NCBI GenBank assembly: GCA_964603455.1
Contig: CAZRVL010000001.1
Location: 17,031 to 81,030 of the forward strand
Origin: an uncultured Lachnospiraceae bacterium
Lineage (GTDB): Bacteria; Bacillota; Clostridia; Oscillospirales; CAG-272
Direction of reading: 5' to 3'
Length of the DNA stretch: 64,000 nt
The position numbers and the translations under genes are program-made. Shown piece by piece: positions 17,161-63,048 of the stretch (its first letter is position 1; each line of letters begins with the position of its first letter). The notes below the pieces were generated by a model. That model was not told the DNA's origin, made no database searches, and saw only the letters and a list, made by a program, of their open reading frames with translations.

Positions 17161-18588
17161 ATGAAAAACAAAATAACAGCTCTGCTCCTCGTTGCAGCTC
17201 AGCTCGCACTCTTCTCATGCGGTGATCAGCAAAACAGCAACACTGAATCTTCAATTGAAGACACTCAAAGCGGCGATACCACAGCAAGTGACGGATATTC
17301 TCCGTCTAAGACATTTGATGACAAAGAGGTAAATATACTTCTTTGGACAGGAAGCCGCATCGCCGTAACAGAGGAAACCGGCGATGTAATAGATGACGCT
17401 GTATATAAAAGGAATCTTAAGGTAGAGGATGAGCTTAAGGTAAAGTTTAAGTATGATTCACGTACCGGTCACGGAAATGAATACAGTTCATGGCTCTCGA
17501 CCTTAAATTCAAGCATACTCGCAGGCGACAACGCATATCAGCTCGCCGGAGGATACGGCTACAGACTTTCAACAGAAGCTCTGAGCGGAAACTTTATGGA
17601 TCTCGCTGACAATCCATACATTGACTTCACAAAGCCATGGTGGCCGTCAAATATAATCGAAGCTGCCGATATAGGCGGAAAAATAACTATGGCATTCGGA
17701 AACATAGATCCTGTATACTATGATTCGACTTATGCGGTATTCTTCAATAAGGTCATTGCCGAGGATAATAAGCTCAATGATATATATCAGCTCGTAAATG
17801 ACGGCAAATGGACGCTCGACAAATTTCTCGAATATTCGCAGACTGCTGCAGATGATCTCAACGGCGATTCAAAAATGACCGAAGAAGACAGATACGGTGT
17901 ACTTTTCGACACGGCTATGTCGATAGACGCATTCATAAATTCCTGCGATATTAAAATAACCTCCAGAGATTCTGACGGACTTCCGAAGCTCATCGGATTA
18001 TCTGAAAAATATATAAATGTACAGCAGAAGCTGCGTTCCGCTATACACAATTCGGATCATGTAAGCTATGGAAATGAAAACAACAGCACGCTTTTTATGA
18101 GCGGAAAAGCACTTTTCATGCCGGTAAGTCTCAAATCCGCACATACTCTCCGCGCAATGGATGACGATTTCGGCATAATCCCTTATCCGAAATACAATGA
18201 GGAACAGGAAAAATACATCACTCACAACTCCATCGGAAACACGACCGCATATCTCGTTCCGATAACCTCGGACGCGGAGCTTGCGGGTTGCGTACTTGAA
18301 GCATTGGCTTATTACGGTTACAAGGATATTCTTCCCGAATACTATGAACGCGCATTAAAGGGTAAGGGCACTCGCGATGATGAATCGGCAGCGATGCTCG
18401 ATTTGATATTCGCCAACATCGAATTTGAATTTACCCAGATATATTCCTTCAATTTCGGCGACAATAAATCACCATCAATGGCACTCAGAGCCTCTGTATA
18501 CTATGACGAAGAGCTGGCATCGACATGGGCTAAGAGTGAAAATCTGTATGAGGAAACGATGAAGAACCTCATAAATGAACTCAAATAA
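17161..18588 (+). CDS. Solute-binding-protein-type lipoprotein, paralog 1 (LplA-like family-1 SBP, no cognate permease nearby)
   Basis: SD GAAAGGA lies 8 nt before ATG 17161. Lipobox LALFSCGD. Family motifs FGIIPYPKYNEEQEKY and YYERALKGKGTRDDESAAMLDLIF. Confidence 0.65.
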   Translation: MKNKITALLLVAAQLALFSCGDQQNSNTESSIEDTQSGDTTASDGYSPSKTFDDKEVNILLWTGSRIAVTEETGDVIDDAVYKRNLKVEDELKVKFKYDSRTGHGNEYSSWLSTLNSSILAGDNAYQLAGGYGYRLSTEALSGNFMDLADNPYIDFTKPWWPSNIIEAADIGGKITMAFGNIDPVYYDSTYAVFFNKVIAEDNKLNDIYQLVNDGKWTLDKFLEYSQTAADDLNGDSKMTEEDRYGVLFDTAMSIDAFINSCDIKITSRDSDGLPKLIGLSEKYINVQQKLRSAIHNSDHVSYGNENNSTLFMSGKALFMPVSLKSAHTLRAMDDDFGIIPYPKYNEEQEKYITHNSIGNTTAYLVPITSDAELAGCVLEALAYYGYKDILPEYYERALKGKGTRDDESAAMLDLIFANIEFEFTQIYSFNFGDNKSPSMALRASVYYDEELASTWAKSENLYEETMKNLINELK

Positions 18589-18671
18589 TTCCAAAATTTA
18601 ACTTGGCAAACAACAATTCTTGTGCAGAAAAAGTGATATGTAAAATATATGTAAATATTTCCTTGAATCTA

Positions 18672-18702
18672 TTGACAAATTTCGGGGGGGGGGTGGTATA
18701 AT
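18672..18702 (+). promoter_or_regulatory. Promoter of SBP paralog 2 with a homopolymeric G10 spacer
   Basis: TTGACA (18672-18677), a 19-nt spacer containing G10, then an extended -10 TGGTATAAT (18694-18702). ATG 18744 follows SD AAGGAGA. Confidence 0.7.
18684..18693 (+). repeat. Homopolymeric G10 tract
   Basis: Read directly as ttcGGGGGGGGGGtgg. I saw no comparable homopolymer elsewhere in the window. Confidence 0.95.
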
Positions 18703-18743
18703 GTTGATATATTATGAATTTTTCTTGCACAAGGAGAATAAAA

Positions 18744-20177
18744 ATGAAGCTCAAATTAACAGCACTGCTGCTCATCGCGGCACAGCTCGCCATGTTTTCA
18801 TGCGGCGATAATTCGAATGTTGATACCGAGACCACAACAGACACACAATCCGAAACGACCGAAGTCGGTGACGGATATTCTGTAAGTAAGACTTTCGAAG
18901 GTCAGGAGGTCAATATCCTGCTTTGGTCATTAACCGGGATCAATGTGACCGAGGAAACAGGAGATGTCATAAACGATGCTGTATATCATAGAAATCTCAA
19001 TGTAGAGGACGAGCTTAAGATAAAGCTCAAATATGATGTACGCGCAGGTCACGGCGGAGATTACGGCAACTGGATATCAACGTTAAATGCAAGCATAATG
19101 GCAGGAGACAATGCTTATCAGTTGGCAGGTGGATACGGATACCGTCTAACCGGAGACTCGCTCAACGACAGCTATATGAACCTGAAAGACAATCCGTATA
19201 TAGACTTCACAAAGCCCTGGTGGCCATCAAATATCATCGAGGCATCCGACCTCGGCGGACGTATGACTGTAGCCTTCGGCAACATCGATCCATCCTATTA
19301 CAACACGACTTACGATATATGCTTTAATAAGCAGATAGCCGAGGATCTCAAATTTGATGATATATACACCATCGTAAAGGATGGCAAATGGACACTCGAT
19401 AAGCTTATAGAATATTCGAAACTCGCGGCTGCAGATCTTGACGGTGATACAAAGATGACAGATGCTGACAGATACGGACTCATTTGTGACAATAATATGT
19501 GTGTAGATGCGTTCATAAATTCCTGCGACATAAAGATAACCGAAAAGGATTCCAACGGTGTTCCTTCACTTATCGGTCTGACCGAGAGATATACAAATCT
19601 CTATGACAAATTATACGATTTTTTGAAGACATCCGATTCGGCATATCTCTGTGATGATATGGACAATGTTAATGTAAAGCTGTTCATGAGCGGAAAAAGT
19701 ATGTTCTTCGCTTCCAGATTCCGCGATATACATACTCTCCGTTCGATGGACGATGATTTCGGTGTAGTTCCATATCCGAAGTACGATGAGGCTCAGGAAG
19801 AATATTATACCTACAATGCTATAGGAAACTCTACCTCGTTCATCGCACCGGTTACAGCCGATGAAGAACTCACCGGATGCCTTCTCGAAGCATTGGCATA
19901 TCACGGATACAAAGAAATTCTTCCCGAATACTACGAACGTGCGCTCAAAGGCAAGGGAACACGTGATGACAGCTCGGCAGAAATGCTCGATATAATATTC
20001 AACAATGTCAAGTATGACTTTACACAGATATACTCCTTCAACTTCGGCGATCAGAAGGCTCCGTCTATGGCTCTCAGAATGTCTTTAAAAAATAGCAATC
20101 CTATCTCATCTCTCTGGGCTTCAAATCAGAACATATACGATGAGACTATGGAAAAACTCACAAGTACACTTAAATAA
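18744..20177 (+). CDS. Solute-binding-protein-type lipoprotein, paralog 2 (tandem duplicate of paralog 1)
   Basis: Lipobox LAMFSCGD. Collinear with paralog 1 along its full length, roughly two-thirds identical by eye. Motifs FGVVPYPKYDEAQEEY and YYERALKGKGTRDDSSAEMLDIIF. Confidence 0.65.
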   Translation: MKLKLTALLLIAAQLAMFSCGDNSNVDTETTTDTQSETTEVGDGYSVSKTFEGQEVNILLWSLTGINVTEETGDVINDAVYHRNLNVEDELKIKLKYDVRAGHGGDYGNWISTLNASIMAGDNAYQLAGGYGYRLTGDSLNDSYMNLKDNPYIDFTKPWWPSNIIEASDLGGRMTVAFGNIDPSYYNTTYDICFNKQIAEDLKFDDIYTIVKDGKWTLDKLIEYSKLAAADLDGDTKMTDADRYGLICDNNMCVDAFINSCDIKITEKDSNGVPSLIGLTERYTNLYDKLYDFLKTSDSAYLCDDMDNVNVKLFMSGKSMFFASRFRDIHTLRSMDDDFGVVPYPKYDEAQEEYYTYNAIGNSTSFIAPVTADEELTGCLLEALAYHGYKEILPEYYERALKGKGTRDDSSAEMLDIIFNNVKYDFTQIYSFNFGDQKAPSMALRMSLKNSNPISSLWASNQNIYDETMEKLTSTLK

Positions 20178-20184
20178 TATGCTT

Positions 20185-24805: not shown

Positions 24806-24910
24806 ACTGTTTTCTCCTTTCATGAGTATAGTCGCAAAAATATTTAAATGGTTCGGTCAAAGATCGATTTTTTATTTTCTGCTCAGATTTATATAGTTTT
24901 AATAAATCAC

Positions 24911-29349: not shown

Positions 29350-30072
29350 TCATTCACAGAGCATAGTTTTTAGCAGCTCATATGCAAACATCCAATGAAG
29401 CTCACGTGTCGGATGATTTGCGTGATTTGACAAAAGTCTATTGGTATCAACTCCGCCTTCAGCCATCTTTTGCCAGATCAAATTGCAATCACATATTTTC
29501 ACATCAAGCTCTTCAGCTGTTTTTCTTCCGAGTTCAAGATATTTTTCAAGCCATCCGTCTCGTTCATTTTCGCTGATTGAGCGTATACAGCTCTCAAGTA
29601 TCTTGTCGCTGTCCTTATAATCGGCATAATTACACCTGAGATTCGGAGTCATGAATATCGCTTCAGCACCGCTGTTTTGTATCCTTTTGAATATTTCCTT
29701 AAGAGATTCTCCGTACCTTTCAAGCTCGGTTTCCTTTCTTCCGGCATCATTCAGACCATAGCATACAACTACAAGATCCGGAGAAAAGCTGAGAACATCG
29801 AGTTCGAGCCTTGCAAGTCCGTTCCAAGAGGTATCACCGCTAATTCCGGCATTTATAATGTTTACCGATACTGACGGATATATTATAGCGAGAAGGCTTT
29901 TGAGCTTTGACGAATAAGCTTCATCGGGATAAAATGTAGTCTTGACCTGTCCGTTTTCACTGTATATCTCAAAGCAGCCCTGAGTCACACTGTCTCCCAA
30001 AAAGGCTATCACCGGCTGTCGGCAGGAATTTAAATTGCTCTGCTTTTCCTTGAAACGTTCGATTATCTTCAT
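29350..30072 (-). CDS. SGNH/GDSL-type hydrolase (esterase)
   Basis: Start MKIIERF at 30072 forms an ATGA overlap with the upstream stop. Block I is FLGDSVTQG and block III is CYGLNDAG. Confidence 0.7.
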   Translation of the reverse strand: MKIIERFKEKQSNLNSCRQPVIAFLGDSVTQGCFEIYSENGQVKTTFYPDEAYSSKLKSLLAIIYPSVSVNIINAGISGDTSWNGLARLELDVLSFSPDLVVVCYGLNDAGRKETELERYGESLKEIFKRIQNSGAEAIFMTPNLRCNYADYKDSDKILESCIRSISENERDGWLEKYLELGRKTAEELDVKICDCNLIWQKMAEGGVDTNRLLSNHANHPTRELHWMFAYELLKTMLCE

Positions 30073-33580: not shown

Positions 33581-34153
33581 TCATTCGGGTCTATCTTCAA
33601 GAGTGAGCTCGTAATCTCCGAGATGCTTGACCTTGAAGCCGTTTTTCTTATATTCGTTGTAATCGAAAGCTTCGAGCTCATCGATAGCTAATTTGTGGAA
33701 CTCATAGAAATTGTGCCACCATTCATAGCCGCTGCCAAGCTCTGCACCAAGGTAAGCATCCGCTATATCGCAGCCCATCTTCGGCGCAACATAAAACGCC
33801 CCCATCGCCAGAACATTTACACCGTTTCCTGTTATTGCGCGAAGCGCAGCAGGAACACTTTCGACCACTCCGGCATGTACGTGCGGACACTTTGAGGCCG
33901 CGATATGTATACCCATTCCGGTACCGCAAAATATGAGTGCGCGCTCAAATTCCCCTTCTGAAATCATCGAACCGACTCTGAGTCCAACTCTGTGGAACAT
34001 AAGATCGGTATCGTTCGGATCTGAATCGGCACGAACTCCGACATCGGTTATTTTCCACCCCTTCTTTTTCAGATGCTCTACGACCGCCTCCTTCAGCGGA
34101 TAGCCGGCGAAATCCGCACCGACCAAAAGCTCCTTTTCTTTGATGGTTTTCAT
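33581..34153 (-). CDS. RpiB/LacA/LacB family sugar-phosphate isomerase with a C-terminal extension of about 40 aa
   Basis: GADFAGYPLKEAVVEHLKKKGWKITDVG and active-site region IFCGTGMGIHIAASK. 190 aa, against about 150 for canonical RpiB. Confidence 0.75.
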   Translation of the reverse strand: MKTIKEKELLVGADFAGYPLKEAVVEHLKKKGWKITDVGVRADSDPNDTDLMFHRVGLRVGSMISEGEFERALIFCGTGMGIHIAASKCPHVHAGVVESVPAALRAITGNGVNVLAMGAFYVAPKMGCDIADAYLGAELGSGYEWWHNFYEFHKLAIDELEAFDYNEYKKNGFKVKHLGDYELTLEDRPE

Positions 34154-35209: not shown

Positions 35210-35227
35210 ATGAACCTCCGTCTTAAA

Positions 35228-35243
35228 TTTAAAACGTTTCAAA
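35228..35243. promoter_or_regulatory. Candidate LacI-family operator in the lacI-type gene leader
   Basis: TTTAAAACGTTTCAAA is a 16-bp palindrome with one mismatch centred on CG, matching the TGAAACGTTTCA-type half-sites of LacI/CcpA-family operators. It lies between the predicted -10 and the SD. Confidence 0.45.
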
Positions 35244-39134: not shown

Positions 39135-39163
39135 TTGCAAAACGGCTCAAAATGTGGTATTAT
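39135..39163 (+). promoter_or_regulatory. Sigma-A type promoter of the nad/aro operon
   Basis: TTGCAA (39135-39140), 17 nt, extended -10 TGGTATTAT ending at 39163. Confidence 0.6.
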
Positions 39164-39198
39164 ATTATAGTACAAATATATTCTTCGGGAGCAATCAC

Positions 39199-40119: not shown

Positions 40120-40133
40120 AGGAGATATAAATT

Positions 40134-43275: not shown

Positions 43276-43314
43276 AGGCTTTATCTGCTATTATTTATAA
43301 AAGGACTGATATAA

Positions 43315-49213: not shown

Positions 49214-51046
49214 ATGATCAACGCACTTTCGCATGATAAGATCAAGCTCACTTCAGGCTTTTGGAAGGAAAAACAAACGATGGTGAGAAAAACCACCATC
49301 ATGAACGTCTACAAGCGTTTTAAAGAAACCGGACGCTTCGATGCCTTTAAAATGAACTGGAAAGAGGGCGAGCCCAACAAGCCGCATATCTTCTGGGACT
49401 CGGATGTTGCTAAATGGCTCGAATCTGTCGCTTACCTCACTAAGGAATCCCCTGAGCCAGAGCTCGAAGCCATCGTCGATGAAGTAGTCGATGACATCGA
49501 AAGGGGTCAAATGGAAGACGGTTACTTCAATATCTATTACGAGCTCTTTGAGCCGAACAACCGCTTCACAGTACGCGGAAACCATGAGCTCTACTGTGCA
49601 GGTCATCTCATTGAAGCCGCTATCGCTTACGATGATGCTACAGGCAAGCATAAATTCCTCAACCTTATGCTGAAATATGCCGCTTATATCGAGAAGGTAT
49701 TCAAGATCGATCAGTCGGCTGCATTCGATTCTCCCGGTCATGAAGAAATAGAGCTCGCCCTTGTTAAGCTCTATGACTACACCGGAGACCGCAGATGGCT
49801 CGACCTCTCGCTTTTCTTCATCAACAACCGCGGCTCTCAGGCTAAGCTCCCCGAAGGCGACAACTACCACCGTGATACAAACATACAGGATCATGCTCCG
49901 GTTCGTGAGCAGTTCACAGCAGAGGGTCATGCAGTCCGTGCATGCTATCTCTACTGCGCTATGGCTGACCTCGCACTTCGTGAAAATGACGAAGGTCTTA
50001 AGAATGCCTGCGATAAGATATTCAAAGATATAACACAGTCGAAGATGTACATAACCGGTGCTATCGGCTCTACAAAGAATGCGGAAGCCTTTGAGGATGC
50101 CTATCGCCTTCCCGATGACACAGCTTACGGCGAGACCTGCGCGGCTCTTGCACTGGCTCTCTTCGCACGCAGAATGACAAGACTTGACCCAGATTCGGTA
50201 TACGCCGATACTGTTGAGCGCGTAATATACAATGGATTTCTCTCGGGAGTGTCGCTTGACGGAAAGTCCTTCTTCTATGAAAATGCACAGGAGATCGACC
50301 TTGAGAACCGCAAGATCGTCCGTGCCTCACTCCATAACAACCGCAATACCCACTTCCCGATAACTCAGCGTATTGAGGTATTCGGCTGCTCCTGCTGTCC
50401 TCCGAATGTGACAAGATTCATTCCGTCCATTGGTGATTTCATCTACAATTATACAAATGATATGGTTTACGTGAACCAGTATATGTCGAACGAAGCCGAT
50501 TTCGGCGATTTCAAGATAGAACAAAAGACTGGCTATCCGTATGACGGATCGGTCAGCATAGTATGCGACAAAGACAAAAAGCTCGCGATAAGGATCCCCG
50601 GTTGGTGCGATGTATGGACTTTAAAGTGCGGCGGTAAGGCAGTAAATGCCGAGGTCGTAAAGGGATATGCAATGCTCGAAGCGAATGGCGGCGAGGAAAT
50701 CGTGCTTGATATGCGCATAGAACCTAAGAAGGTGCGTGCGGATATGCGCGTAAGAGAAAATCGCGGACAGATGGCAGTGACCTACGGTCCGTTCGTAATG
50801 TGCATGGAAGGTGTTGACAACGGCGGTAGCTTATCCAACGTAGAACTCGGTGCGAACTTTGTGGTATCGCACGATGATGAGCTGAATGTTCCGTGCGTAT
50901 ATGCAGATGCGGTTCGAGTAGATGTAGCTTCATTATATTCGAACAAAGTAACAGAATCGCCGTTCCGCGCAAAGCTAATCCCGTATTTTGCATTTGCGAA
51001 CCGCGGTGAATGCGACCTCAAGATCTGGGTAGCAAGTCGCAAATAA
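49214..51046 (+). CDS. GH127 (DUF1680) beta-L-arabinofuranosidase-like hydrolase, cytoplasmic
   Basis: N-terminus GFWKEKQ...FDAFKMNW...HIFWDSDVAKWLE, GHEEIELALVKLY, and the Cys-rich metal/catalytic motif FGCSCCPPNV typical of GH127. Confidence 0.8.
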   Translation: MINALSHDKIKLTSGFWKEKQTMVRKTTIMNVYKRFKETGRFDAFKMNWKEGEPNKPHIFWDSDVAKWLESVAYLTKESPEPELEAIVDEVVDDIERGQMEDGYFNIYYELFEPNNRFTVRGNHELYCAGHLIEAAIAYDDATGKHKFLNLMLKYAAYIEKVFKIDQSAAFDSPGHEEIELALVKLYDYTGDRRWLDLSLFFINNRGSQAKLPEGDNYHRDTNIQDHAPVREQFTAEGHAVRACYLYCAMADLALRENDEGLKNACDKIFKDITQSKMYITGAIGSTKNAEAFEDAYRLPDDTAYGETCAALALALFARRMTRLDPDSVYADTVERVIYNGFLSGVSLDGKSFFYENAQEIDLENRKIVRASLHNNRNTHFPITQRIEVFGCSCCPPNVTRFIPSIGDFIYNYTNDMVYVNQYMSNEADFGDFKIEQKTGYPYDGSVSIVCDKDKKLAIRIPGWCDVWTLKCGGKAVNAEVVKGYAMLEANGGEEIVLDMRIEPKKVRADMRVRENRGQMAVTYGPFVMCMEGVDNGGSLSNVELGANFVVSHDDELNVPCVYADAVRVDVASLYSNKVTESPFRAKLIPYFAFANRGECDLKIWVASRK

Positions 51047-52323: not shown

Positions 52324-53802
52324 TCACTCGATATTTCTTACCAGTTCGGTGATCTCAGCAAGATAATTTTCTGCCGATGATTTGTTTGAATCATAGTATG
52401 AAGTTATGTTTACATTCTTTTTGGCAATATTGTCGCGGTATGAGTTCATAGGAGAGAACTTGTACTTTCCGCTCGCTTCAAGGAACATCGAGAAGTCATA
52501 TTTTCTCGAATCCATGATGAGATCAAGCATCTTCAGAGAATTTTCATCGCGAACGCCCTTCTCTGCCAACGAGACCTCATATACCGCAGGTCTCATATAT
52601 TTGTAGCCGTATGCAGACATACACTCTACAACTTCACCGATCACTTCAAGCTTTTCATCACTTATGTTTATCGGGAGGAAGAAGACTCCGGTACGTCCAA
52701 GCATATGCGTTTGATATTCTGCCTGATTCTCATCGAGCTTCGGGTACGGAAGTATTCCGTAGTCGTCACTCATTGATCTAAGGTCTGTTCCGATAAGATA
52801 ATTCAAAAGCATCGGCGAGAATAATGCCTGTCCGTTCGCAAAATTAACTCGATAATCATACGGTGCGTTCGTATCTACATAAGCCCCCGAATTGTTCCAG
52901 TAGAGATCATACAGCTTCTCTATCGATGTAACCAATCTGTCACTGTAGAAATCTACGACCGGGTAATTGTCGCTGTCGCGTCCTATTGATGTAACACCGT
53001 GCGACACCATGAAAGCGTCAAGTGTTGCAAATGAATCGGTATATAAGCCGTAAATATCATCCGCATCGCTCTGATTGTTTCCGTTTAGATCGACATATAC
53101 ATCCTTTGTAAGCGAATATGCCTTGTCCATAGTCCATTTACCAGACTCGACTGTCTCGTAAATATCGCCGATATTCCACTCATCTGCAAGACGCTTATTG
53201 AACACCCACGTCCAACACATCGTTATATTTGTGGAACAAGCATCAGAAAGTATTCCGAATTGACTGTCACCTATCTTTATCTGCTCGTTAGCATCCTCTA
53301 CATACCACGGCTTAGAAAGGTCGTAACCCTTCACATCGTTCCACGGCATTACCGTTCCGCTCGTTATGATATTTCCGGCATATATCGCCTTCATAACATA
53401 CATATCACAGAGATTGTCACCTGCCAGAATGCTCTGATTGAAGGTCGAGACCGAATCGCGTTCGGCGAATGAGCAGTCGTATACCAATTTCACGCCAAGA
53501 CGATTTTCGGTTTCGATATTGCGCTTATATATCGCGTCATCGACCGGTTCACCGGTCTGCTCGGCTTCGAATGCCTCGGAATCCACATAGTTGTAGCCTG
53601 CCGCTCCGTAGCCGAATATCCTTATCTCCATTCCATCCATATCGCGCTGAGGAAGCTCATCGTATATGTCTACCTCGTTAGAGGTAGTCTCATTAGAACT
53701 TGTTTGCTCAGTTCCCCCCTCAGTGGAAATAGTTTCATTTCCGCACGCTGCTGTCGAAATCAGCAGAGACGCAAGAAGTGCAACAGATACCGCCTTTTTC
53801 AT
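52324..53802 (-). CDS. Solute-binding-protein-type lipoprotein, paralog 4
   Basis: SD GAAAGGA lies 11 nt before ATG 53802. Lipobox ISTAACGN. Motifs YGILPYPKLDENQAEY and YEVSLAEKGVRDENSLKMLDLIM. Confidence 0.6.
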   Translation of the reverse strand: MKKAVSVALLASLLISTAACGNETISTEGGTEQTSSNETTSNEVDIYDELPQRDMDGMEIRIFGYGAAGYNYVDSEAFEAEQTGEPVDDAIYKRNIETENRLGVKLVYDCSFAERDSVSTFNQSILAGDNLCDMYVMKAIYAGNIITSGTVMPWNDVKGYDLSKPWYVEDANEQIKIGDSQFGILSDACSTNITMCWTWVFNKRLADEWNIGDIYETVESGKWTMDKAYSLTKDVYVDLNGNNQSDADDIYGLYTDSFATLDAFMVSHGVTSIGRDSDNYPVVDFYSDRLVTSIEKLYDLYWNNSGAYVDTNAPYDYRVNFANGQALFSPMLLNYLIGTDLRSMSDDYGILPYPKLDENQAEYQTHMLGRTGVFFLPINISDEKLEVIGEVVECMSAYGYKYMRPAVYEVSLAEKGVRDENSLKMLDLIMDSRKYDFSMFLEASGKYKFSPMNSYRDNIAKKNVNITSYYDSNKSSAENYLAEITELVRNIE

Positions 53803-53825: not shown

Positions 53826-56342
53826 TTATTTTTTATAGTTCCAATGCTCATCGGGGAGAATATCATACGGGCGCAGAAATTCGAGCTTTCTGTAGTCACC
53901 GAAATTTTCCTTTGCCTGGAAGCATATTGAAACACCTCCGCTTATATGCTTTCCGACATAGCAACCACGCTTCTCATCATATTCAAGCTCACATTTCGGA
54001 CCTCTCCAAAGATCCCAGACACCGCCGACAAATGCTGTTCCTCCCTTTTCGGGATATATCGTCAGTTCGGCATCGCAAAGTCCGTTTATGACATATCTTT
54101 CATCGTTGTTGACCACAACGTCCGCAACATGTTCGCGCTTTAAAGAGATCTTCGAACGCTTTTCCTGCTTCACGAAGACACGGCAGTCGGTATGTATCCA
54201 TCTTGACAACGGATACGTTCCGATACTGTTGTCGATGGTAAATTCGCTATTGTCAAACGCAGGTGCTCCGAGCGGAGTCGTGTAATTCATCTTTACTGAA
54301 GCATCCTTTGCAAAGAGATTATATACAAGCGAATTGCGGCATTTTGCGAACTGAACTATCGGAAGATTATCATCAACACTGAAGGTCTCAAACGTCAAGC
54401 CATATCCGAACAGCTCAAGCGCACATCTCGGGAGCATCGCAGTCGGGAAATACTTCGAAGGCATGAGCTTCGGAGGGAGTCCGCCCTTGTCTCCGTGAGG
54501 GAACGAGCCGCGTATCCATACAAGCCCCATATCCTTGTTATAGGTCATATACGCACGCTTTTCGCCGTCCTTCGATACCTCGGCAGCGACATAAGTGCTA
54601 CCGTTCGAAATCTCGCCGATACCGCCGTTCGACATGAGAGAGGGATGGGAGATCATATTGGAATATTCATTCACCTCAGCCTTGTCGAGCTTAAGCTCAG
54701 TCGAAAGCTCAAGTTCACCGCAAAGCTCGGTCGAATATGCTATGCCGACAGCATCAAGAAGCTTTCTTGACGCATTTCGCAAACTTCCGACCAGGATAAC
54801 TCTAACACCCTTCTCAATAGCCTCGAACAATGCCGCTTCGAGTCGGCTGTCAGCCTTCGGAACAGGTGTGAAAAGTATAGTGTTCACGAGTCCGGACTTA
54901 TCACAGACGATGAAATTCTCATCGGATATTACGCTGTTCAGCGGCATTCCCATATCAATAGCCGCTTCAACATACCAGTCGTCCATGAAAATCTCCGAGA
55001 TATGTCCCTCATGAAGACCGCTCTCGCAGTATGCCTCGAAGGGATATACCCATGTTACAAGTCCGGCCTCATCGGGATAATCGTTGTATGCGGTAAGAAG
55101 GTGCGGTATGACCTCATTCGGACAACGTTCGGGAAGTCTGCCGTATGAATCGTCTGCCGACAGGAAGCTGAGTCCGAACGGCTTTGTAACCTCAAGCTTT
55201 TCGTCGAGTCGAGCCAAAGCGAGCGGAAGATATATATCATGCGGACTGCGGTCATATCTGTCGAACCACGGCGAATTTATCCACCATGGGTCATGTATAT
55301 AATAACGAAGGTTGAAGCCCTTCTCAGGCAAACGTGCAGTATGCGACATACAGCCTGCAAGCTCAAGACCGAAACGATAGTTGAGCGGTGCCCAGGGAGA
55401 GTTCGGCGGTGCTACAAGGTTCTTTTGAGAATATATCTCATCTATCGGACAGCCGTGCGCCGAAATATCCATTCCGGTCGAGAGATTCGAGCCGCGTGTT
55501 TCGACCCTTGTATCGCCGATCTCGGCTGTGAAATATTTCCAGAACTCAGATATGTTATCGCGCACCTTTTTTGCGCCGTCAAAGTTGAATTCAGTTCCGT
55601 TGAAAAGCTCACCTGTCCAGTTCCAGGAAGCGAGCGAGAAACCGAAGCCGTTCGACAGCCAAATATAGTCAAAGCCCAGATCGCGCTTCATAGCCATGAA
55701 CTGCCGTCCCAAGAACTCACCGATATGCGTACCTTCGGGAATACCGTTCGGATAAGCGGCATAATGCCTGTCATCACCGTGAAGCCTTGATGCACAATGC
55801 ACCCACATCTTGCTTCCCATAATATCGCCCTTGCATATCTCGGTGTGGCGGTTGTATTTAAAGTCTGACCATGCAAATTCAGGTCCCGGATCAAAGGTCT
55901 CGCCTACCTCGATGTCAAAGCCTGTGATCTCTTTACCGACACGCTTCATGATCGAAATTATGCGTTTCAGATCACCATAGGTCATTTCGGGCGGATTTTC
56001 GATGTAGTTCAGCGGATAAGCATGAAGACTGAGACGATCTGCGCGTGAATGCGGGTCTGATTCTCTGTTCCAGTTTCCTATACCGAGATATTTGCACCAT
56101 TCAAAGCTGTCATCCATATTGCCGGAATATTCGAGTATCTCCGAGCCGTCGCTCGTCCAAAAAAGCAGCGCACAGCCCGTTGCATATTTAAGTAGCGGTC
56201 TCCACTGATCAAACAGCTCACGTGCGACCTTTTCAAAGCCTTCATCGCTCATATCTCTGCCAAAAGGCTTAAGGCTTATCTCAAGGCATACTCTTCCGGC
56301 ATTCGTTGTGCTTTTATATTCGTAATTAAACATTATTTTCAC
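53826..56342 (-). CDS. Large cytoplasmic protein of unknown family (candidate carbohydrate-active enzyme)
   Basis: An uninterrupted 838-aa ORF with no signal peptide or TM, and no family motif I can name. It is flanked by the isomerase and SBP4 genes with 12- and 23-nt gaps. Confidence 0.5.
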   Translation of the reverse strand: MKIMFNYEYKSTTNAGRVCLEISLKPFGRDMSDEGFEKVARELFDQWRPLLKYATGCALLFWTSDGSEILEYSGNMDDSFEWCKYLGIGNWNRESDPHSRADRLSLHAYPLNYIENPPEMTYGDLKRIISIMKRVGKEITGFDIEVGETFDPGPEFAWSDFKYNRHTEICKGDIMGSKMWVHCASRLHGDDRHYAAYPNGIPEGTHIGEFLGRQFMAMKRDLGFDYIWLSNGFGFSLASWNWTGELFNGTEFNFDGAKKVRDNISEFWKYFTAEIGDTRVETRGSNLSTGMDISAHGCPIDEIYSQKNLVAPPNSPWAPLNYRFGLELAGCMSHTARLPEKGFNLRYYIHDPWWINSPWFDRYDRSPHDIYLPLALARLDEKLEVTKPFGLSFLSADDSYGRLPERCPNEVIPHLLTAYNDYPDEAGLVTWVYPFEAYCESGLHEGHISEIFMDDWYVEAAIDMGMPLNSVISDENFIVCDKSGLVNTILFTPVPKADSRLEAALFEAIEKGVRVILVGSLRNASRKLLDAVGIAYSTELCGELELSTELKLDKAEVNEYSNMISHPSLMSNGGIGEISNGSTYVAAEVSKDGEKRAYMTYNKDMGLVWIRGSFPHGDKGGLPPKLMPSKYFPTAMLPRCALELFGYGLTFETFSVDDNLPIVQFAKCRNSLVYNLFAKDASVKMNYTTPLGAPAFDNSEFTIDNSIGTYPLSRWIHTDCRVFVKQEKRSKISLKREHVADVVVNNDERYVINGLCDAELTIYPEKGGTAFVGGVWDLWRGPKCELEYDEKRGCYVGKHISGGVSICFQAKENFGDYRKLEFLRPYDILPDEHWNYKK

Positions 56343-56354
56343 CCTTTCTTTAAA

Positions 56355-57791
56355 TCATGCGAGCGGTTTTTCGAGCTTTATGCCCATCATACGCGCAAAT
56401 ATTTCGATTTCCTTCATATGATCTCCGACACCGAGAGCCAGATGATGTGTAGGTCCTGCCGCACACCAACGCTCAACAAATTCATTTGCCGGGACATTGA
56501 AACGGCATTTTGTGTTCGTGTTTCCGGTAGCAGGTATCGCGCCCGGTCTCGATTCACCATTCGCCGCTATCAGCTTCATAGCTCCGTCTCGTCCTACCGA
56601 ACAGGATAACAGCGATATTTCACCGGTTTTAAGCTTAAATTCAACCGAAACTCCCGCCCCGGATTTTCCGTGGAACTTTTTCAGCTTTCGAAGCACCGGA
56701 CGCTCATCGCTGATATTTATATTGTGCGGACCGTCATGACCTATGAGTACGATGTCATCGACCGTATCGAACGGATGAAGCTCCGCAAACGAACCACCGC
56801 CGCCTATGCGGTTCATTATCAGCATAGCCGCTGCAGTCTTCAGATCGGCTTCTCCTGCCAACGGTATCCCGCGGCTCGTAAGGAGTGAATTTCCGATGAT
56901 CAGATTTGATGCTATCCGCTCATATTCATTGCCGTTCTCGCCCTTGTAGTAATATGCCAGTGCGGTAAGACCGTTTTTCTCGACAAGCTCGTCAAGTCCG
57001 ACCGAGCATTTTGCGGCAAGCTCAAGATCCGAATCGCTGACATAATCGGTCAATGGGTCATTCGATGGCTCACGAATATCGAATATCGACTTTATGACTT
57101 CGATGCGTTCCTTCACCTGTTGTTCGGTAACAGAATTGACATATTCACAAAGTTCACACATTTCGAGCATCTTGACATGAGCTCCGAACGCCGCCGAGAA
57201 CGCAGTCGGGTCGGTATTCATGTCATACATTCCATCATAAGTGTGACCGAGATAACCGAATTTCGCATACTTGAATGCCGAGACAGCCGATATTGCACGC
57301 TCCAACAAACCGACACGTTTAGCTATAACCTCACGATCATTTGCAGTCTCGACCAGAAGAAAAGGCTTCTTAGCACCGAGCCGTTCGTAAACTCCGACAA
57401 ACTCAGGCATTGAACATATGTCATCATTCATAAGCTGCATATAAGTTGTGGTTTTGGAGTAATCGAGCCTTTCGAGCGGTTGGAGAGCGACCAATATCTG
57501 AGGTATGTTGAGATATTTCGCAAACGGGAACACGACCTGAGAGGTTATGTAGGTTGACATTATTATGAACAGCGCATCAAGATCGAACGAGGCAGCCTTT
57601 TTAAGGCATATATATGAGCTGTCAATATCATCGGCAAAGCCGAGGTCGATGACTTCAACGTCATCCGAAAAATATTTTGCGAAATCGACCTGTTTTTGTC
57701 TCAGATCATCAAGAAGACCATCAAACTGCGGCCAGTATATGTAGTGACCCATTCCGATAAGTCCTATCCGAGCCTTACGTGTGTGAAGCAT
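56355..57791 (-). CDS. L-fucose/L-arabinose isomerase family protein
   Basis: 478 aa. The N-terminus ARIGLIGMGHYIYWPQFDGLLDDL and overall size fit the COG2407-type sugar isomerases. The SD is weak. Confidence 0.55.
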   Translation of the reverse strand: MLHTRKARIGLIGMGHYIYWPQFDGLLDDLRQKQVDFAKYFSDDVEVIDLGFADDIDSSYICLKKAASFDLDALFIIMSTYITSQVVFPFAKYLNIPQILVALQPLERLDYSKTTTYMQLMNDDICSMPEFVGVYERLGAKKPFLLVETANDREVIAKRVGLLERAISAVSAFKYAKFGYLGHTYDGMYDMNTDPTAFSAAFGAHVKMLEMCELCEYVNSVTEQQVKERIEVIKSIFDIREPSNDPLTDYVSDSDLELAAKCSVGLDELVEKNGLTALAYYYKGENGNEYERIASNLIIGNSLLTSRGIPLAGEADLKTAAAMLIMNRIGGGGSFAELHPFDTVDDIVLIGHDGPHNINISDERPVLRKLKKFHGKSGAGVSVEFKLKTGEISLLSCSVGRDGAMKLIAANGESRPGAIPATGNTNTKCRFNVPANEFVERWCAAGPTHHLALGVGDHMKEIEIFARMMGIKLEKPLA

Positions 57792-57955: not shown

Positions 57956-57984
57956 TTGACAAATCCACAGTTTGGGTGTAAAAT
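57956..57984 (+). promoter_or_regulatory. Sigma-A type promoter of the AraC gene at 58018
   Basis: TTGACA (57956-57961), 17 nt, TAAAAT (57979-57984). Confidence 0.6.
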
Positions 57985-58017
57985 ATAATCATGATAATTT
58001 TTAGAAAGGAGCATCAA

Positions 58018-58851
58018 ATGAACGACCAGGTTCAGCAGGCAGATTTCGACATACAGATACGCGAACTGCTTTTAGTTCACAAAAACACCTTTATCCATCG
58101 CTTCAAATGGACAGAATACCGCAGCGGACGGATTATAGACGGCTTCACGATGTGCGTATCCGGAAAAGCATACTTCGACTTTGGCAGCTTCGGCTTCGAG
58201 CTGAATGCGGGCGAAGCGGTATTTCTTCCGGCTGCAAGCTCATATGTAGTGCGCTGTGAGAGCGAAGAACCATTCATACATTATACAATCAATTTCAGAC
58301 TCGAACCGAGTGAAGACCCCGACTGCAAGGTAACGGCATTCTCCGAAATATCCGCAGGAAATCTCAGGCATATCACAAGCTCTGACAGCGCAAATATCTA
58401 TCTCGTAAGACTTGAAGAACTGCTGTCTGTCTGGCAAAGCAAAAAAAACGGCTATCGCGTGAAAGCCAAGGCAATATTATATGATCTGCTCTACCTATAC
58501 TTCACCGATGCAGGTCGCACTCACCGAAATCGTGACGAATATAATATGCTCCTCCCCGCAAAAAAACTGCTCGACGCACACTACAGTGGCTCTGAAACTA
58601 CCGCAGAATTAGCAGAGCTGTGCAATATGAGCGTAACGACCTTCAGACGGATGTTCACAAAGCTTTTTGCCATGCCGCCGATGGAATATAAGACAAATAA
58701 GCGCATACTTCGCGCAAAGGATCTTCTGCTCTCGGGACAGTATTCTATAAGCGAAGCGGCACATGAGGTCGGATTTACCGATCCGAATTACTTCACAAGA
58801 GTCTTCAAGGCACGCGAAGGCATCTCACCGTCCGAATTTATTCGCGGCTGA
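58018..58851 (+). CDS. AraC family transcriptional regulator
   Basis: SD AGAAAGGAG lies 6 nt before ATG 58018. Cupin-like N-domain and HTH (GFTDPNYFTRVFKAREGISPSEF). Confidence 0.8.
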   Translation: MNDQVQQADFDIQIRELLLVHKNTFIHRFKWTEYRSGRIIDGFTMCVSGKAYFDFGSFGFELNAGEAVFLPAASSYVVRCESEEPFIHYTINFRLEPSEDPDCKVTAFSEISAGNLRHITSSDSANIYLVRLEELLSVWQSKKNGYRVKAKAILYDLLYLYFTDAGRTHRNRDEYNMLLPAKKLLDAHYSGSETTAELAELCNMSVTTFRRMFTKLFAMPPMEYKTNKRILRAKDLLLSGQYSISEAAHEVGFTDPNYFTRVFKAREGISPSEFIRG

Positions 58852-58900: not shown

Positions 58901-58910
58901 CATTAAATTG

Positions 58911-59933
58911 TCATTCTCTGTTATACTTTCTGAAAAGCTCAATAGCGGGCTTGCCCTTTGGAGTAAAGCCACAGTTTCCGGCAGGGTCTGAGTCGAGGAA
59001 TGGACGATCGAGCTGCTCATCCCACTTCCACCAGCATATTCCGCGCCACCAGCTCTCGTTCTTAAAGGTCTCAACGACCGCTTCGAGATAATTTGCCTGT
59101 TCCATGCCGTCATATTTCGGAGTAAGACTCCAACCGGCAGGACTCATCGCACCGCCCTCTCTCGATGTACAGCCGCATTCGCCGAAAAGCAATGGCTTGC
59201 CGTATATTTCGGCGCATTTTCTGAACCTTTCAAGCAGTGGCACAAATGCTGTCTTCAGCTCTTCGAGTGTAGGATTCGGTTTAGTAGCTGCCTTGTAGTA
59301 GCAGCTTATCGACAGAAGATCGAGGTCATGGAACCAATGATTTTTGTTCTTAACCGCCGCTTCGAAGTCGATATGCCCAAGATGACAGGTGTGACAGGAG
59401 GTTACAGGACCGCTGTAAACCTCTCGAACCGCTCGAATGACCTCCTTCCATTGACTGTTGAAAGGAACTATGAGGTCCAATTCGCTGTCAAGACAGAACA
59501 TTTCGCAGCCTGTGCGCTCGGCTATCTTTGCATAATGAACCGAACGCGCCTTCATGCTCCTGAACCATCTCGCAGCATGATCGGTCGCACAGCCCGGAAT
59601 GCGGTTAGCCGAATCCCATGGAAACCATGTAGAAAGTCTGTCCGAGCCATCAAGTCCTTCGAGCATCGGTCTAAGCTGTATCTTTATGCCAAGACTGTGA
59701 AGATAGTTTATCATATCCACAAGCTCTATATCGGTCGGGGTCAGCTCAAAATCCATGAACTGGAAATTTGCCGAATAGTTCTCCTGGAACACAGTAGCGA
59801 CAAGAGTCACCCACTTTATACCGGCAGCCGCAATAGCATCGGCTTCAGCCTTAGCCTCAGGCGATTCATAATATCCGGCTTTCGCACGGAATCCGAATGT
59901 AACACCATATTGTCTTTCATCGATAACGTTCAT
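58911..59933 (-). CDS. TIM-barrel glycoside hydrolase, clan GH-A-like (GH113/GH5-like), cytoplasmic
   Basis: 340 aa. Beta/alpha-barrel-like pattern with candidate catalytic Glu residues (FCLDSELD, LLFGECGCTS). ATGA overlap with the upstream gene. The family assignment is tentative. Confidence 0.45.
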   Translation of the reverse strand: MNVIDERQYGVTFGFRAKAGYYESPEAKAEADAIAAAGIKWVTLVATVFQENYSANFQFMDFELTPTDIELVDMINYLHSLGIKIQLRPMLEGLDGSDRLSTWFPWDSANRIPGCATDHAARWFRSMKARSVHYAKIAERTGCEMFCLDSELDLIVPFNSQWKEVIRAVREVYSGPVTSCHTCHLGHIDFEAAVKNKNHWFHDLDLLSISCYYKAATKPNPTLEELKTAFVPLLERFRKCAEIYGKPLLFGECGCTSREGGAMSPAGWSLTPKYDGMEQANYLEAVVETFKNESWWRGICWWKWDEQLDRPFLDSDPAGNCGFTPKGKPAIELFRKYNRE

Positions 59934-61573
59934 TTTGATTCTCCTTTTGTGCTCTTAAAAAGAACACCGTATTTTAAATTATTTACAAAAAGCATATCAT
60001 GTTCGGTCGAAAGCTCTGCAGTCTCATCGTCCCAAATATTTATGACTTCAAGTTGTTCGTAAAGCGGTATCTCTATTACCTTTTTAGAGATAATAGACTC
60101 ATCCTTTAAGTCACGCAGTATATTCTTCCAGTTGTACGACTTGTTTCTCAGATAACCGAGTACCGAATTTTTGCCGCGCAGGATGAGAAGAATAAATTCA
60201 TCATCCTCATATACAAATGATCTGAACTCTTCGCGATCAAATTCTATACCGCGTGAAAGTATCTCGATAGGCTTGAAATATTTATAAAGATTCTTTGACT
60301 CGACATATCGTCCGTCCCAATGCCAGATATGACCACAACCTGCCGCACAGCAGAATATCGGAGTATAAACGAGATCACAGAATATCATTCCGTTGTGATC
60401 GGCATTGTAATATCTGAAAGGTCCGGAATGACAGTTGTTGACCGCTCCGGTCTCAGCGACTATAAACGGCTTGTTCGGCTCTGCGAGACGAACTACCGCA
60501 TCACGTATCAGAGCTATCGTGTCATCATGGCAGATCTCATAGCCTGAACCTTGATCGAGGTAGCGATGCACCTGTTTTATATCCGAAAGCTCCCAGACGA
60601 AATTTTTATACAGCTCATATACTCCGTCACAGTCGAAGCTTCCGAGAGAATTCATCACTAAATGCCGCTTGAAAAGTTCCTTTACTTTCGGGAGCATATA
60701 CCTGTTCCATTCGAGCATCTCATTCCAAGGCAAGCAGTTCATTTCGTTCCAAAGCTCTATGCCGAATACAGTCGGATCTCCCGAAAAGCGTTTGGCAAGC
60801 TCTTTGACCTTATAAAGCCACTTTTCGCGCCAAACATCATCTCTGAGCCATTCTGCGGCACTTTTACAGCGTCGGTCTCCGATATAAAGCCGCTTATTGA
60901 ACTTTCGGAAAACATCATCCGAATATGAATCCGAATCCGCGACTCTCTCATAATCAAAGAATCTGAATTGTTCCAGAGTGAGCTTCAGTTTTATATCATA
61001 TTTTTTCGAAAGCTCTACTAGATATTCGATTTTCGAAAGCTTTATATTGTCAAGCACTCCGGCTTCTTCTGTGTCCGGCGAAAAATATTCGTGACCTATC
61101 CATATTCTGACAATATTCACACCGTTTTTGCTGCATTCGCGAAACCAATGCTCGTATTGACGCATTCCGAGATACTTGAAACCCGAGCAACCGAACTCAT
61201 CGCCGTTTGACTTCGAATACGGAGTTATAAAGGCTAAGTTTATGCCTATCGGGCAAAACGAAGTCGAGTCACTGTAGGCAAAATATCTCGGATCTTTCTT
61301 ACTAACTTCAACATATCCGTGCAGATCCGATTCGACACATTCAAATTCTCCGCCGTCAAAGCTGTATACTCCAAGCTCATCCGGGAAAAATCTGACAAGC
61401 TTATAAGGACTCTGAACAGCCGTCACTCTTTCTCCGCCCTCATCATCATAGTAAAATTCTATCGGTTGATATTCAAACGGTTCGAGGATCGTCACTTTTC
61501 CGCTCGGAGACACAAGAGTGATGCTATGCTCACTCTTGTATTCAAATTTTCCGTATAACTTTATCTGCTCCAT
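59930..61573 (-). CDS. GH5-like (clan GH-A) glycoside hydrolase, cytoplasmic
   Basis: Acid/base motif GIELWNEMN and nucleophile-type motif PFIVAETGAV. No signal peptide. Confidence 0.6.
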   Translation of the reverse strand: MEQIKLYGKFEYKSEHSITLVSPSGKVTILEPFEYQPIEFYYDDEGGERVTAVQSPYKLVRFFPDELGVYSFDGGEFECVESDLHGYVEVSKKDPRYFAYSDSTSFCPIGINLAFITPYSKSNGDEFGCSGFKYLGMRQYEHWFRECSKNGVNIVRIWIGHEYFSPDTEEAGVLDNIKLSKIEYLVELSKKYDIKLKLTLEQFRFFDYERVADSDSYSDDVFRKFNKRLYIGDRRCKSAAEWLRDDVWREKWLYKVKELAKRFSGDPTVFGIELWNEMNCLPWNEMLEWNRYMLPKVKELFKRHLVMNSLGSFDCDGVYELYKNFVWELSDIKQVHRYLDQGSGYEICHDDTIALIRDAVVRLAEPNKPFIVAETGAVNNCHSGPFRYYNADHNGMIFCDLVYTPIFCCAAGCGHIWHWDGRYVESKNLYKYFKPIEILSRGIEFDREEFRSFVYEDDEFILLILRGKNSVLGYLRNKSYNWKNILRDLKDESIISKKVIEIPLYEQLEVINIWDDETAELSTEHDMLFVNNLKYGVLFKSTKGESK

Positions 61574-61575
61574 AC

Positions 61576-63048
61576 TCAGTCCTCAAGTGCCATAATATCT
61601 GCAAGATATTCTTCGCACATGGTATTTACAGCTTCTTCCTGCGAAGCCCATGTCGATGCCCAACCCCCGGTCGGTCTAGAGATAGCATTTCTCAAAGTGG
61701 TTGATATAGCTTTCATCATAGGTCCGTGAACCACACCGAAATCAAAGCTGATATGTCCTCTTATAAGATCGAACATCTGTGCGCTTATGTCATCACGCGA
61801 ATACTTTACCTTTAATGCCTTCTCATAGTATGCCGGAGTTACCGAACGATAGTTCTCGCTCGCCAAAGCTTCGAGTACAGCCGCACAATTTTCCACATTT
61901 GCGGTCTTAAGTATTCCGAACAGCGAATAAGTTGCTCTCGATGAGGAAATATATTCGGACTGCTCCTCATCATATTTGGGGTATGGAAGGATACCGAAAT
62001 CGAAATCCATATCTCTGAATATTTCGGAATTTTTAAATTCACCTGTCATAAAAAGTGAGCGTCCATCTGAGAATATCTTAGTCTCATCTGAGTCCTCCGG
62101 CAACTGTTCGAGACAAGAATCGTTTTCCATTATGGTCTTGAATTTGTCGATAAGCGAAACTATCTGCTCAGAGCCAAGAACATATTCAAAAAGTCCTTCT
62201 GAGTTCTTCTCGGTAAGTCTGAGTCCGCAGGACAAAACAAAGTTCGGCGCATGATTCACGTTCGAAAAATAAAATCCGAATTGGTCTTCGAGATCGACCG
62301 AGGTATTGCCGTTTAAGTCGCTGTACATTGACGATGCCATCTCTGTCATCTTGTCAAGCGTCCACTTTCCGTTATTGACCAACTGATACGGATCATCAAG
62401 ATGATTTTGCTCGATCATATTCTTGTTGAAATAAAAGCACATCACCCCTTTTACAACACCAAGGCAGGCTTCTCCCGAACACATATACATACGTCCGTTC
62501 ACCGAAAGCTCATCGACCAACTCAGCCGGCCACCAATCCGAATCGAAGTTGAGATACGGTATGTCACTCTTGAGCAGGTTTACGAACATTCCCTCCTGCG
62601 CAAGATACGGCATTATATTCGAAAGTCCGGCAGCTATATCAATAGAACCGTCATTCGCCAAAACGCTCGATCTCACCGTGTCCATGTATATGTTGCGGTC
62701 ACCCCAGAAGTCCTCGGAAGTGTTCGAGATATATTCGAGGTTCACGTTAAGGCGTTCCTCTATGGCACGGTTTCGGTTGTATATCGCGTCATCGACAATA
62801 TCGCCGCTCTCCTCCGCGTCAAATTCACTTTCGATGGTATCGCCGCGAACATATATTTTAACAGTTGCGTCATTTAGATTTGTGCCGACCGGAATATTGT
62901 CTATCGAGGTCTCGACTCCCGAAGAAATTTGATCATCTGCCGAAGTATCATCAGACTGCATACCATCCGAGTCCGAGCACGCTGTAAAAGAAGTTATCGA
63001 GGCTAACATAGCTACCAAAAGCAGCTTTGAGATCATTCGCTTTTTCAT
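61576..63048 (-). CDS. Solute-binding-protein-type lipoprotein, paralog 5
   Basis: Lipobox TSFTACSD. Motifs FGILPYPKYDEEQSEY and YYEKALKVKYSRDDISAQMFDLIR. Confidence 0.6.
   Translation of the reverse strand: MKKRMISKLLLVAMLASITSFTACSDSDGMQSDDTSADDQISSGVETSIDNIPVGTNLNDATVKIYVRGDTIESEFDAEESGDIVDDAIYNRNRAIEERLNVNLEYISNTSEDFWGDRNIYMDTVRSSVLANDGSIDIAAGLSNIMPYLAQEGMFVNLLKSDIPYLNFDSDWWPAELVDELSVNGRMYMCSGEACLGVVKGVMCFYFNKNMIEQNHLDDPYQLVNNGKWTLDKMTEMASSMYSDLNGNTSVDLEDQFGFYFSNVNHAPNFVLSCGLRLTEKNSEGLFEYVLGSEQIVSLIDKFKTIMENDSCLEQLPEDSDETKIFSDGRSLFMTGEFKNSEIFRDMDFDFGILPYPKYDEEQSEYISSSRATYSLFGILKTANVENCAAVLEALASENYRSVTPAYYEKALKVKYSRDDISAQMFDLIRGHISFDFGVVHGPMMKAISTTLRNAISRPTGGWASTWASQEEAVNTMCEEYLADIMALED

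Follow-up and report, generated by a model that had tools for sequence, protein, structure and literature searches.

A 64-kb stretch of DNA from an uncultured Lachnospiraceae bacterium (64,000 nucleotides, here called the window) encodes five paralogous lipoproteins that resemble the receptors of sugar importers, and the question raised by this locus is how the sugars would enter the cell. The five proteins, named SBP1 to SBP5 (SBP, solute-binding protein), are about 480 amino acids (aa) long, can be aligned end to end, and stand in small operon or regulon contexts of their own. An earlier note, made from the sequence alone, had pointed out that no gene for an ATP-binding cassette (ABC) permease or ATPase accompanies them. 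We propose that SBP1–SBP5 belong to a large family of interchangeable receptors that would feed a few shared translocators encoded elsewhere, and we put the probability of this reading at about 0.6.

Five paralogous lipoproteins

All five open reading frames (ORFs) were present where the earlier note had placed them:

17161..18588, plus strand: SBP1, 475-aa lipoprotein of the orphan binding-protein family (ORF, alignment, AlphaFold2 model, and Foldseek)
18744..20177, plus strand: SBP2, tandem paralog of SBP1 (64% identity)
32090..33544, minus strand: SBP3, family member within a rhamnosidase operon
52324..53802, minus strand: SBP4, last gene of the operon AraA-like / 838-aa protein / SBP4
61576..63048, minus strand: SBP5, first gene of the operon SBP5 / GH5-like / GH113 (GH, glycoside hydrolase family)

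In the five-sequence alignment, SBP2, SBP3, SBP4, and SBP5 were 64%, 31%, 31%, and 34% identical to SBP1, respectively, and 56 columns were invariant. The lipobox cysteine, which follows a hydrophobic N-terminus, was invariant in all five proteins and in 64 of 64 family members. The 30–40 residues after this cysteine are rich in S, T, D, E, and N, and residues 1–42 of SBP1 were disordered in the AlphaFold2 model (predicted local distance difference test score, pLDDT, <50). The lipobox and the low-complexity linker described in the earlier note were thus both recovered, as were its two collinear motifs, which were found in the five-paralog alignment and were kept in the 64-sequence family alignment.

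Long antisense ORFs were observed within family genes, in the window at 32561–33058 (+) and 62401–62877 (+) and also in sampled loci from other genomes (L021, L033, L061, L074, and others; sampled loci and contigs are cited by such numbers throughout). We take these recurrent ORFs for shadow ORFs arising from codon bias, not for genes. One BLAST cluster, made up of 21 ORFs each about 500 aa long, had seemed to be a recurrent neighbor but was rejected; those of its members that were compared by coordinates are antisense shadow ORFs inside family genes.

Predicted fold and family placement

A hidden Markov model (HMM) check against PF01547, PF13416, and DUF3502, put forward in the earlier note, came back empty: none of SBP1–SBP5 matched a Pfam model at E ≤ 0.01 (PF01547, PF13416, and PF12010 included), and there was no relevant NCBIfam match. 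Precomputed family-1 Pfam matches were present on about 12% of the listed relatives, where they were rated "weak" or "faint". Sequence searches of the PDB with family profiles gave marginal matches only, with best E-values of 0.0076 and 0.077 for the profiles of 5 and 64 sequences, respectively.

The AlphaFold2 model of SBP1, built with 64 homologues, was confident, with a pLDDT of 89.6 and a predicted template modelling (TM) score of 0.86. In Foldseek searches against the PDB, E-values of 1e-13 to 1e-14 (down to 2e-14), 12–16% identity, and target-normalised TM-scores of 0.61–0.70 were obtained for full-length alignments of this model with Lmo0181, the trehalose/maltose-binding protein (TMBP), UgpB, AbnE, the β-L-arabinobiose-binding protein, and RafE. 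A fold other than that of binding proteins, which the earlier note had considered as an objection, is thus refuted.

In regards to sequence, hhalign aligned the family profile with WP_073386918.1 of Butyrivibrio fibrisolvens over 400 columns at a probability of 99.86% (E = 5e-31). This 501-aa protein carries PF01547 at 48.9 bits and matches the AbnE structure at E = 8e-7, and its gene directly follows two sugar permease genes. The same comparison with two Christensenellales binding proteins was not significant. From the bridging homology to the Butyrivibrio protein and from the predicted fold, we conclude that SBP1–SBP5 and their relatives form a divergent branch among the family-1 (sugar-type, CUT1) binding proteins.

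Two further observations concern these proteins. Residues 232–246 of SBP1 form a conserved D-L-N-G-D-x-x-x-D-x-x-D-x-Y-G motif, which occupies the same columns in all paralogs. It resembles an EF-hand or dockerin-type calcium loop, and the Butyrivibrio relative carries it as well. The locus of that relative (L096, Butyrivibrio fibrisolvens pNP243, 1–11320) is an unusual cluster, with two permease pairs separated by genes for NHL-repeat, YIP1-family, and DUF5696 proteins; the pairs are followed by genes for large binding proteins of 501 and 536 aa, and the 501-aa protein is the nearest annotated relative.

ABC components in the window

Neither BPD_transp_1 nor ABC_tran was detected in the 64-kb window when its long non-nested ORFs were compared with Pfam. 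Six-frame phmmer searches of the window with 18 permease seeds gave no match at E ≤ 10, and the MalK and UgpC ATPase seeds likewise had no match in the window. In the hydropathy scan, the full-size polytopic transporters were two, a MatE protein (14855–16228) and an AI-2E protein (37583–38953), and two small 3-helix proteins were found, a 208-aa ORF (13003–13629) and a DUF4956 protein (26667–27338). The observation of the earlier note that the 64 kb hold no ABC permease or ATPase was therefore borne out by Pfam, hydropathy, and six-frame phmmer. The MatE and AI-2E proteins were rejected as partner transporters, as neither recurs beside family genes elsewhere.

Family size and permeases around family genes elsewhere

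A word-indexed search returned 733 homologues, nearly all from uncultured Clostridia and labelled "hypothetical protein". An exhaustive hmmsearch using the family profile (E ≤ 1e-30) put the size of the family at a minimum of 6,731 clusters (50% identity). Some genomes carry at least 10–14 family genes as judged from partial sampling alone, and tandem arrays of 3–5 family genes were frequent in the sampled loci.

To examine permease linkage across the family, we assembled 80 loci from 40 species-level genomes, 80 metagenome loci, and several contexts obtained by exact protein look-up. After removal of redundancy, the sample amounted to 1.77 Mb around 239 full-length family genes with 10-kb flanks. 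It was searched with one permease HMM and 18 phmmer seeds from E. coli, Enterococcus, Listeria, Christensenellales, and Butyrivibrio. The same seeds recovered every permease, a pseudogene included, in control loci from Enterococcus, Listeria, Christensenellales, and Butyrivibrio, with E-values from 7e-14 to 3e-35.

Three permease genes were found in the 1.77 Mb, one of the sugar type and two in amino-acid-type systems. The sole sugar-type permease is situated at the contig edge in L156, at a distance of 4.7 kb from a family gene; the two do not form one operon, being separated by a radical-SAM gene and by a CorA gene on the opposite strand. In L032 and L047, short genes for a permease and an ATPase are convergent to the family genes; these were set aside as amino-acid-type systems with an SBP_bac_3 protein of their own. 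Ten ORFs of 200–310 aa with six predicted helices near family genes were also rejected, since they belong to the chromate, ABC-3, BrkB, Rce1, PlsY, EamA, and other unrelated families. Across the window and the first 83 loci, 88 ORFs (length ≥150 aa) had at least four predicted membrane segments; none of them formed a recurrent-neighbor cluster, and those tested belonged to unrelated families. Furthermore, no membrane-bound sensor kinase or transducer adjoins the family genes in the window, and no membrane protein recurs as their neighbor in the sampled loci.

The absence of linked permeases is a family-wide trait. Because none of the 239 family genes with 10-kb flanks is linked to a sugar-type permease, a permease pair lying just outside the ends of the window, as the earlier note had allowed for, is very unlikely.

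Gene neighborhoods and probable ligands

The genes beside SBP1–SBP5 in the window are as follows:

16232..17014, minus strand: AraC-type regulator (cupin and HTH_18; Pfam), divergent from SBP1/SBP2, without a membrane segment
20314..21726, plus strand: aldehyde dehydrogenase (PF00171), downstream of SBP2 on the same strand
29350..30171, minus strand: GDSL/SGNH esterase (Pfam), closing the SBP3 operon
30069..32072, minus strand: GH78 α-L-rhamnosidase (Pfam), without a signal peptide (hydropathy scan)
33581..34153, minus strand: RpiB/LacAB-type sugar-phosphate isomerase (Pfam), upstream of SBP3
34208..35242, minus strand: LacI-family regulator (Pfam)
35597..37306, minus strand: GH78-like protein with the six-hairpin domain only (PF17389)
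49214..51046, plus strand: cytoplasmic GH127 β-L-arabinofuranosidase (Pfam), the same neighbor as in L095
51218..52099, plus strand: AraC-type regulator (cupin and helix-turn-helix; Pfam)
53826..56342, minus strand: 838-aa protein with a predicted GH42/GH164-like glycosidase fold (no Pfam model; AlphaFold2)
56355..57791, minus strand: AraA-like (L-arabinose isomerase-like) protein, 478 aa (Pfam and synteny)
57991..58851, plus strand: AraC-type regulator (Pfam), divergent from the AraA-like operon, with a promoter-like site at 57956–57984
58911..59933, minus strand: GH113 enzyme (PF22612, E = 1e-70)
59930..61573, minus strand: GH5-like (clan GH-A) enzyme, 547 aa (PDB sequence matches)
63150..63977, minus strand: UxuA-like mannonate dehydratase (Pfam), upstream of SBP5, probably truncated where the window ends

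SBP1 and SBP2 form a tandem pair with the divergent AraC gene on one side and the aldehyde dehydrogenase gene after them. The SBP3 operon comprises the LacI, RpiB-like, SBP3, GH78, and GDSL esterase genes, with gaps of 19 bp between the RpiB-like gene and SBP3 and of 18 bp between SBP3 and the GH78 gene. The SBP4 operon consists of the AraA-like gene, the 838-aa protein gene, and SBP4, followed by a strong terminator-like hairpin (52305–52271, minus strand); the GH127 gene and two AraC genes are nearby. The SBP5 operon consists of SBP5 and the GH5-like and GH113 genes, with the UxuA-like gene upstream and a strong promoter-like site before SBP5 (63166–63138, minus strand; 11/12 positions match). 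With the exception of the SBP1/SBP2 tandem pair, a cytoplasmic enzyme gene lies 3–19 bp from each binding-protein gene in the window.

In agreement with the earlier note, no N-terminal hydrophobic segment was detected by hydropathy in any glycosidase ORF of the window, and AraC- and LacI-type regulators stand beside the family genes. By Pfam these regulators are three AraC-type proteins and one LacI-type protein, all of them soluble and without membrane segments in the hydropathy scan. The labels that the note had given to the enzymes could be narrowed: its "TIM-barrel enzyme" is a GH113 enzyme, and its "GH5-like" protein of 547 aa matches a DUF5060-domain protein in the PDB (E = 1e-12) as well as an endo-β-mannanase, and is therefore better described as a clan GH-A relative of the former. 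Since the enzymes are cytoplasmic and the ligand-sensing regulators are soluble, the glycans must enter the cell. Inferred from the neighboring genes, the likely ligands would be rhamnosides for SBP3, β-L-arabinofuranosides for SBP4, and β-mannosides for SBP5.

In regards to other genomes, an AraC-type regulator was the commonest neighbor outside the family itself, usually divergent (46 genes in 33 loci); the AraC regulator at 16232..17014 is a member of the neighbor cluster present in these 33 loci. Among 112 same-strand neighbors, the most frequent Pfam families were AP_endonuc_2, GFO/IDH/MocA, GH2, GH43, GH28, GH31, GH113, melibiase, and UxuA, and no transporter family was among the 25 most frequent. 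One subgroup of family genes directly follows a G5/M23 peptidase gene (L002 7263–11494, L023 7504–11470, and L088 8315–11470), and a GalT gene lies near the G5/M23-linked member in L002 and L088; this subgroup hints that not all family members serve glycan regulons.

The cassette next to SBP4 was compared across genomes. The 838-aa protein had no Pfam match and no PDB sequence match, although 2,576 homologues were found. Its confident AlphaFold2 model (pLDDT 90.6) resembles GH42 β-galactosidases and GH164 β-mannosidases at 9–11% identity, the predicted fold replacing the bare length by which the earlier note had known it. Its gene is always paired with an AraA-like gene (about 476–478 aa) and an AraC regulator gene, and a GH127 gene is nearby both in the window and in locus L095. 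The protein is a candidate for an unmodelled glycosidase family, possibly with arabinofuranosides as substrate. In a Christensenellales genome, an AraC / AraA-like / 813-aa cassette is followed by GH106, two permease genes, and a DUF3502 binding protein. Locus L095, an independent assembly of a closer relative, has the order AraC, AraA-like, 827-aa protein, 493-aa gene, GH127, and AraC, which is that of the window, and contains no permease. The 493-aa gene occupies the position of SBP4, has no Pfam family on record, and is presumably a family member. Moreover, a near-identical strain contributed clusters for SBP2, SBP3, SBP4, and the 838-aa gene, each with a longest listed contig of 52,417 bp. 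The L095 synteny and the near-identical strain argue against an assembly artefact, and the rearranged assembly that the earlier note had considered is unlikely.

Proposed mechanism and alternative explanations

In the proposed mechanism, a lipid-anchored receptor on the cell surface would capture a single type of oligosaccharide there and would then dock on a translocator common to many receptors, composed of two permease subunits and an ATPase and encoded at a distant locus. The imported sugar would be cleaved in the cytoplasm, and the sugar or its product would induce the local regulon through the AraC or LacI regulator. The earlier note had set this shared permease beside a role in capture or sensing; we favor the shared permease. 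Direct sensing through the adjoining regulators is disfavored, because these are soluble and have no membrane or extracellular part.

Several points weigh against shared translocators. The Pfam family-1 models miss all five window proteins, hhalign of the family profile with E. coli UgpB was not significant (probability 0.35%), and the tie to transport proteins rests on the fold and one bridging homologue. The sample was centred on binding-protein genes and was not random, and it covers locus flanks. No translocator was found, a homologue search with the Butyrivibrio permease having returned Lachnospiraceae proteins only. Finally, some members occur in non-carbohydrate contexts, after the G5/M23 peptidase gene or beside tRNA synthetase genes.

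The lipoproteins might have no role in transport and act in surface glycan capture or as signalling receptors, with no handover to an ABC translocator. This explanation is unlikely, although it draws on the near absence of linked permeases in 1.77 Mb, on a divergence strong enough to lose the Pfam family-1 signal, on the members in non-sugar contexts, and on the signalling proposed for orphan Bug proteins (PMC11452294). The adjoining cupin-AraC and LacI regulators are soluble and cannot touch an extracellular protein, and neither a membrane sensor nor any other membrane protein is a recurrent neighbor of the family genes. Furthermore, the neighboring enzymes are cytoplasmic, so that ligand import is still needed, and most family motifs are common to the permease-linked homologue.

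A little less probable again is delivery to a membrane partner other than a classical type-I ABC permease, either a secondary transporter or an undescribed component. No membrane protein family is enriched beside the family genes, the nearest homologue is permease-linked, and no family-1 sugar-binding protein is known to serve a non-ABC carrier. These points count against such a partner, whereas the extreme sparseness of sugar-type permease genes in the sampled DNA speaks for it, and binding-protein-dependent secondary transporters, the tripartite ATP-independent periplasmic (TRAP) and tripartite tricarboxylate (TTT) transporters, exist in principle (PMC11452294). Similarly doubtful is the idea that these Clostridia are without any ABC translocator for the family and that the binding-protein fold has been repurposed for permease-free work. 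The lipoproteins could then form a lipid-anchored glycan-capture layer that passes ligands to another carrier class or to an undescribed membrane partner; if true, this layer would be a Gram-positive counterpart of surface glycan-binding proteins.

It is quite improbable that each binding protein has a dedicated permease pair encoded at a distant locus. The one sugar-type permease seen, in L156, could be counted in favor of such pairs, but at least 10–14 family genes would call for 20 or more permease genes in a genome of a few Mb, and a single one was found in 1.77 Mb of a sample biased to sugar-utilisation loci. Tandem arrays of 3–5 binding-protein genes without permeases also argue against one-to-one pairing.

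That the missing permeases are an artefact of assembly or of the fragmentation of metagenome-assembled genomes is the least credible explanation: the relatives are all metagenome-assembled and many of their contigs are short, but the same arrangement occurs in 40 independent species-level assemblies, including contigs of 190–540 kb, the window synteny is kept in L095 and in the near-identical strain, and the genes are tightly packed in operons.

The family has no Pfam or NCBIfam model, and annotation pipelines label most of its genes "hypothetical protein", so that metagenome annotation misses a large part of the capacity of abundant, uncultured gut and rumen Clostridia to take up sugars. Shared translocators, if confirmed, would have consequences for prediction. 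One engine would be served by many specificity subunits of a plug-in type, all of them co-regulated with the enzymes for their ligands, and genome-based prediction of substrate range would have to count receptors, not permeases. The arrangement would also lend itself, as a natural system, to the study of how a single translocator works with many different receptors, and the location of receptor genes beside the enzymes for their ligands leads to testable ligand predictions.

Other features of the window

Several genes of the window lie apart from the binding-protein modules. A sortase-dependent pilus gene cluster (204–8121, minus strand) encodes a 1,269-aa tip pilin (VWA and SpaA), an LPXTG backbone pilin, a sortase, a Cna_B pilin, and a type-I signal peptidase. 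The choloylglycine (bile-salt) hydrolase gene at 8884–9834 points to a gut organism. At 23168–24823 (minus strand), a 551-aa protein combines N-terminal sigma-70 regions 2 and 4 with a C-terminal extension of about 390 aa, in which neither a Pfam match nor a membrane segment was found. Two similar genes of 512–523 aa lie near a family member in a relative (L088, 5219–6790 and 13689–15227). In the segment 25921–29282 (plus strand), which comes after a GDPD phosphodiesterase gene, a VTC-domain protein and the DUF4956 membrane protein are encoded together with a CotH-kinase-like protein of 646 aa that has membrane segments at either end. The block at 39154–44856 (plus strand) shows an unusual mix, with nadA, nadC, and nadB interleaved with aroB and aroA on the same strand.

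Comparison with known systems

The nearest annotated homologue, WP_073386918.1 of Butyrivibrio fibrisolvens D1 pNP243 (annotated as an extracellular solute-binding protein), is of the same length class and has an N-terminal lipobox. It has in common with the family the motifs FNK...W-T-x-x-K, D-x-D/N-x-D-G...D-x-Y-G, and DDxGxxPxPK. It differs in being above the Pfam threshold and permease-linked, and its identity to the window family is about 21–25%.

The solved family-1 proteins (AbnE, 6rjy; arabinobiose-binding protein, 6lcf; Lmo0181, 5f7v; UgpB; TMBP; and RafE) have the same two-lobe fold as that predicted here and, like the window family, an oligosaccharide-utilisation gene context. The mature proteins of the window family are about 40–60 residues longer. 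Solved family-1 sugar-binding proteins are normally encoded together with their permeases.

LplA-type DUF3502 proteins are likewise lipoproteins of about 490–500 aa in glycoside-utilisation clusters, and a Christensenellales LplA-type gene lies near the same AraA-like / 813-aa cassette. The earlier note had assigned the five proteins to large family-1 proteins of the LplA type. The family-1 fold stood, whereas the LplA type did not: the window family is without DUF3502, and the family profile gave an hhalign probability of 3% with a 494-aa LplA-type protein (L091, 18379–19863) that carries DUF3502 at 66.8 bits and, unlike the window family, adjoins two permease genes.

In its working, though not in ancestry, the closest analogue is the Bug/TctC receptor family of Bordetella and other Proteobacteria. 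It is likewise strongly expanded, with dozens to hundreds of receptors, most of them without nearby membrane partners, and the orphans are thought to share distant ones (PMC11452294). Bug/TctC proteins differ from the window family in belonging to another protein family, in using the secondary TTT carrier and not an ABC importer, in being periplasmic and not lipid-anchored, and in binding carboxylates and not glycans; in the Pfam search, the window proteins had no match that would indicate TctC homology.

Sharing on a smaller scale is also familiar. The shared ATPases MsmX and MsmK are well known. Pseudomonas Cbc is a multi-receptor ABC importer with CbcX, CaiX, and BetX, and orphan LT-SBP binding proteins occur in Bifidobacterium (PMC8110962). 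All of these follow the same principle, in which one translocator or ATPase serves receptors from other loci. In those cases the sharing is confined to the ATPase or extends to between two and a handful of receptors, whereas here the entire window family, with a minimum of 6,731 clusters, is uncoupled from permease genes, and its genes reach ten or more copies in a genome. Neither this family nor sugar-binding proteins uncoupled from permeases across a whole family in Clostridia were described in any paper that we found. The fold and the principle are familiar, whereas the scale and the consistency of the uncoupling appear to be undescribed. If dozens of receptors share few translocators, the system would be a type-I ABC importer built like a group-II energy-coupling factor (ECF) transporter or a Bug/TTT system.

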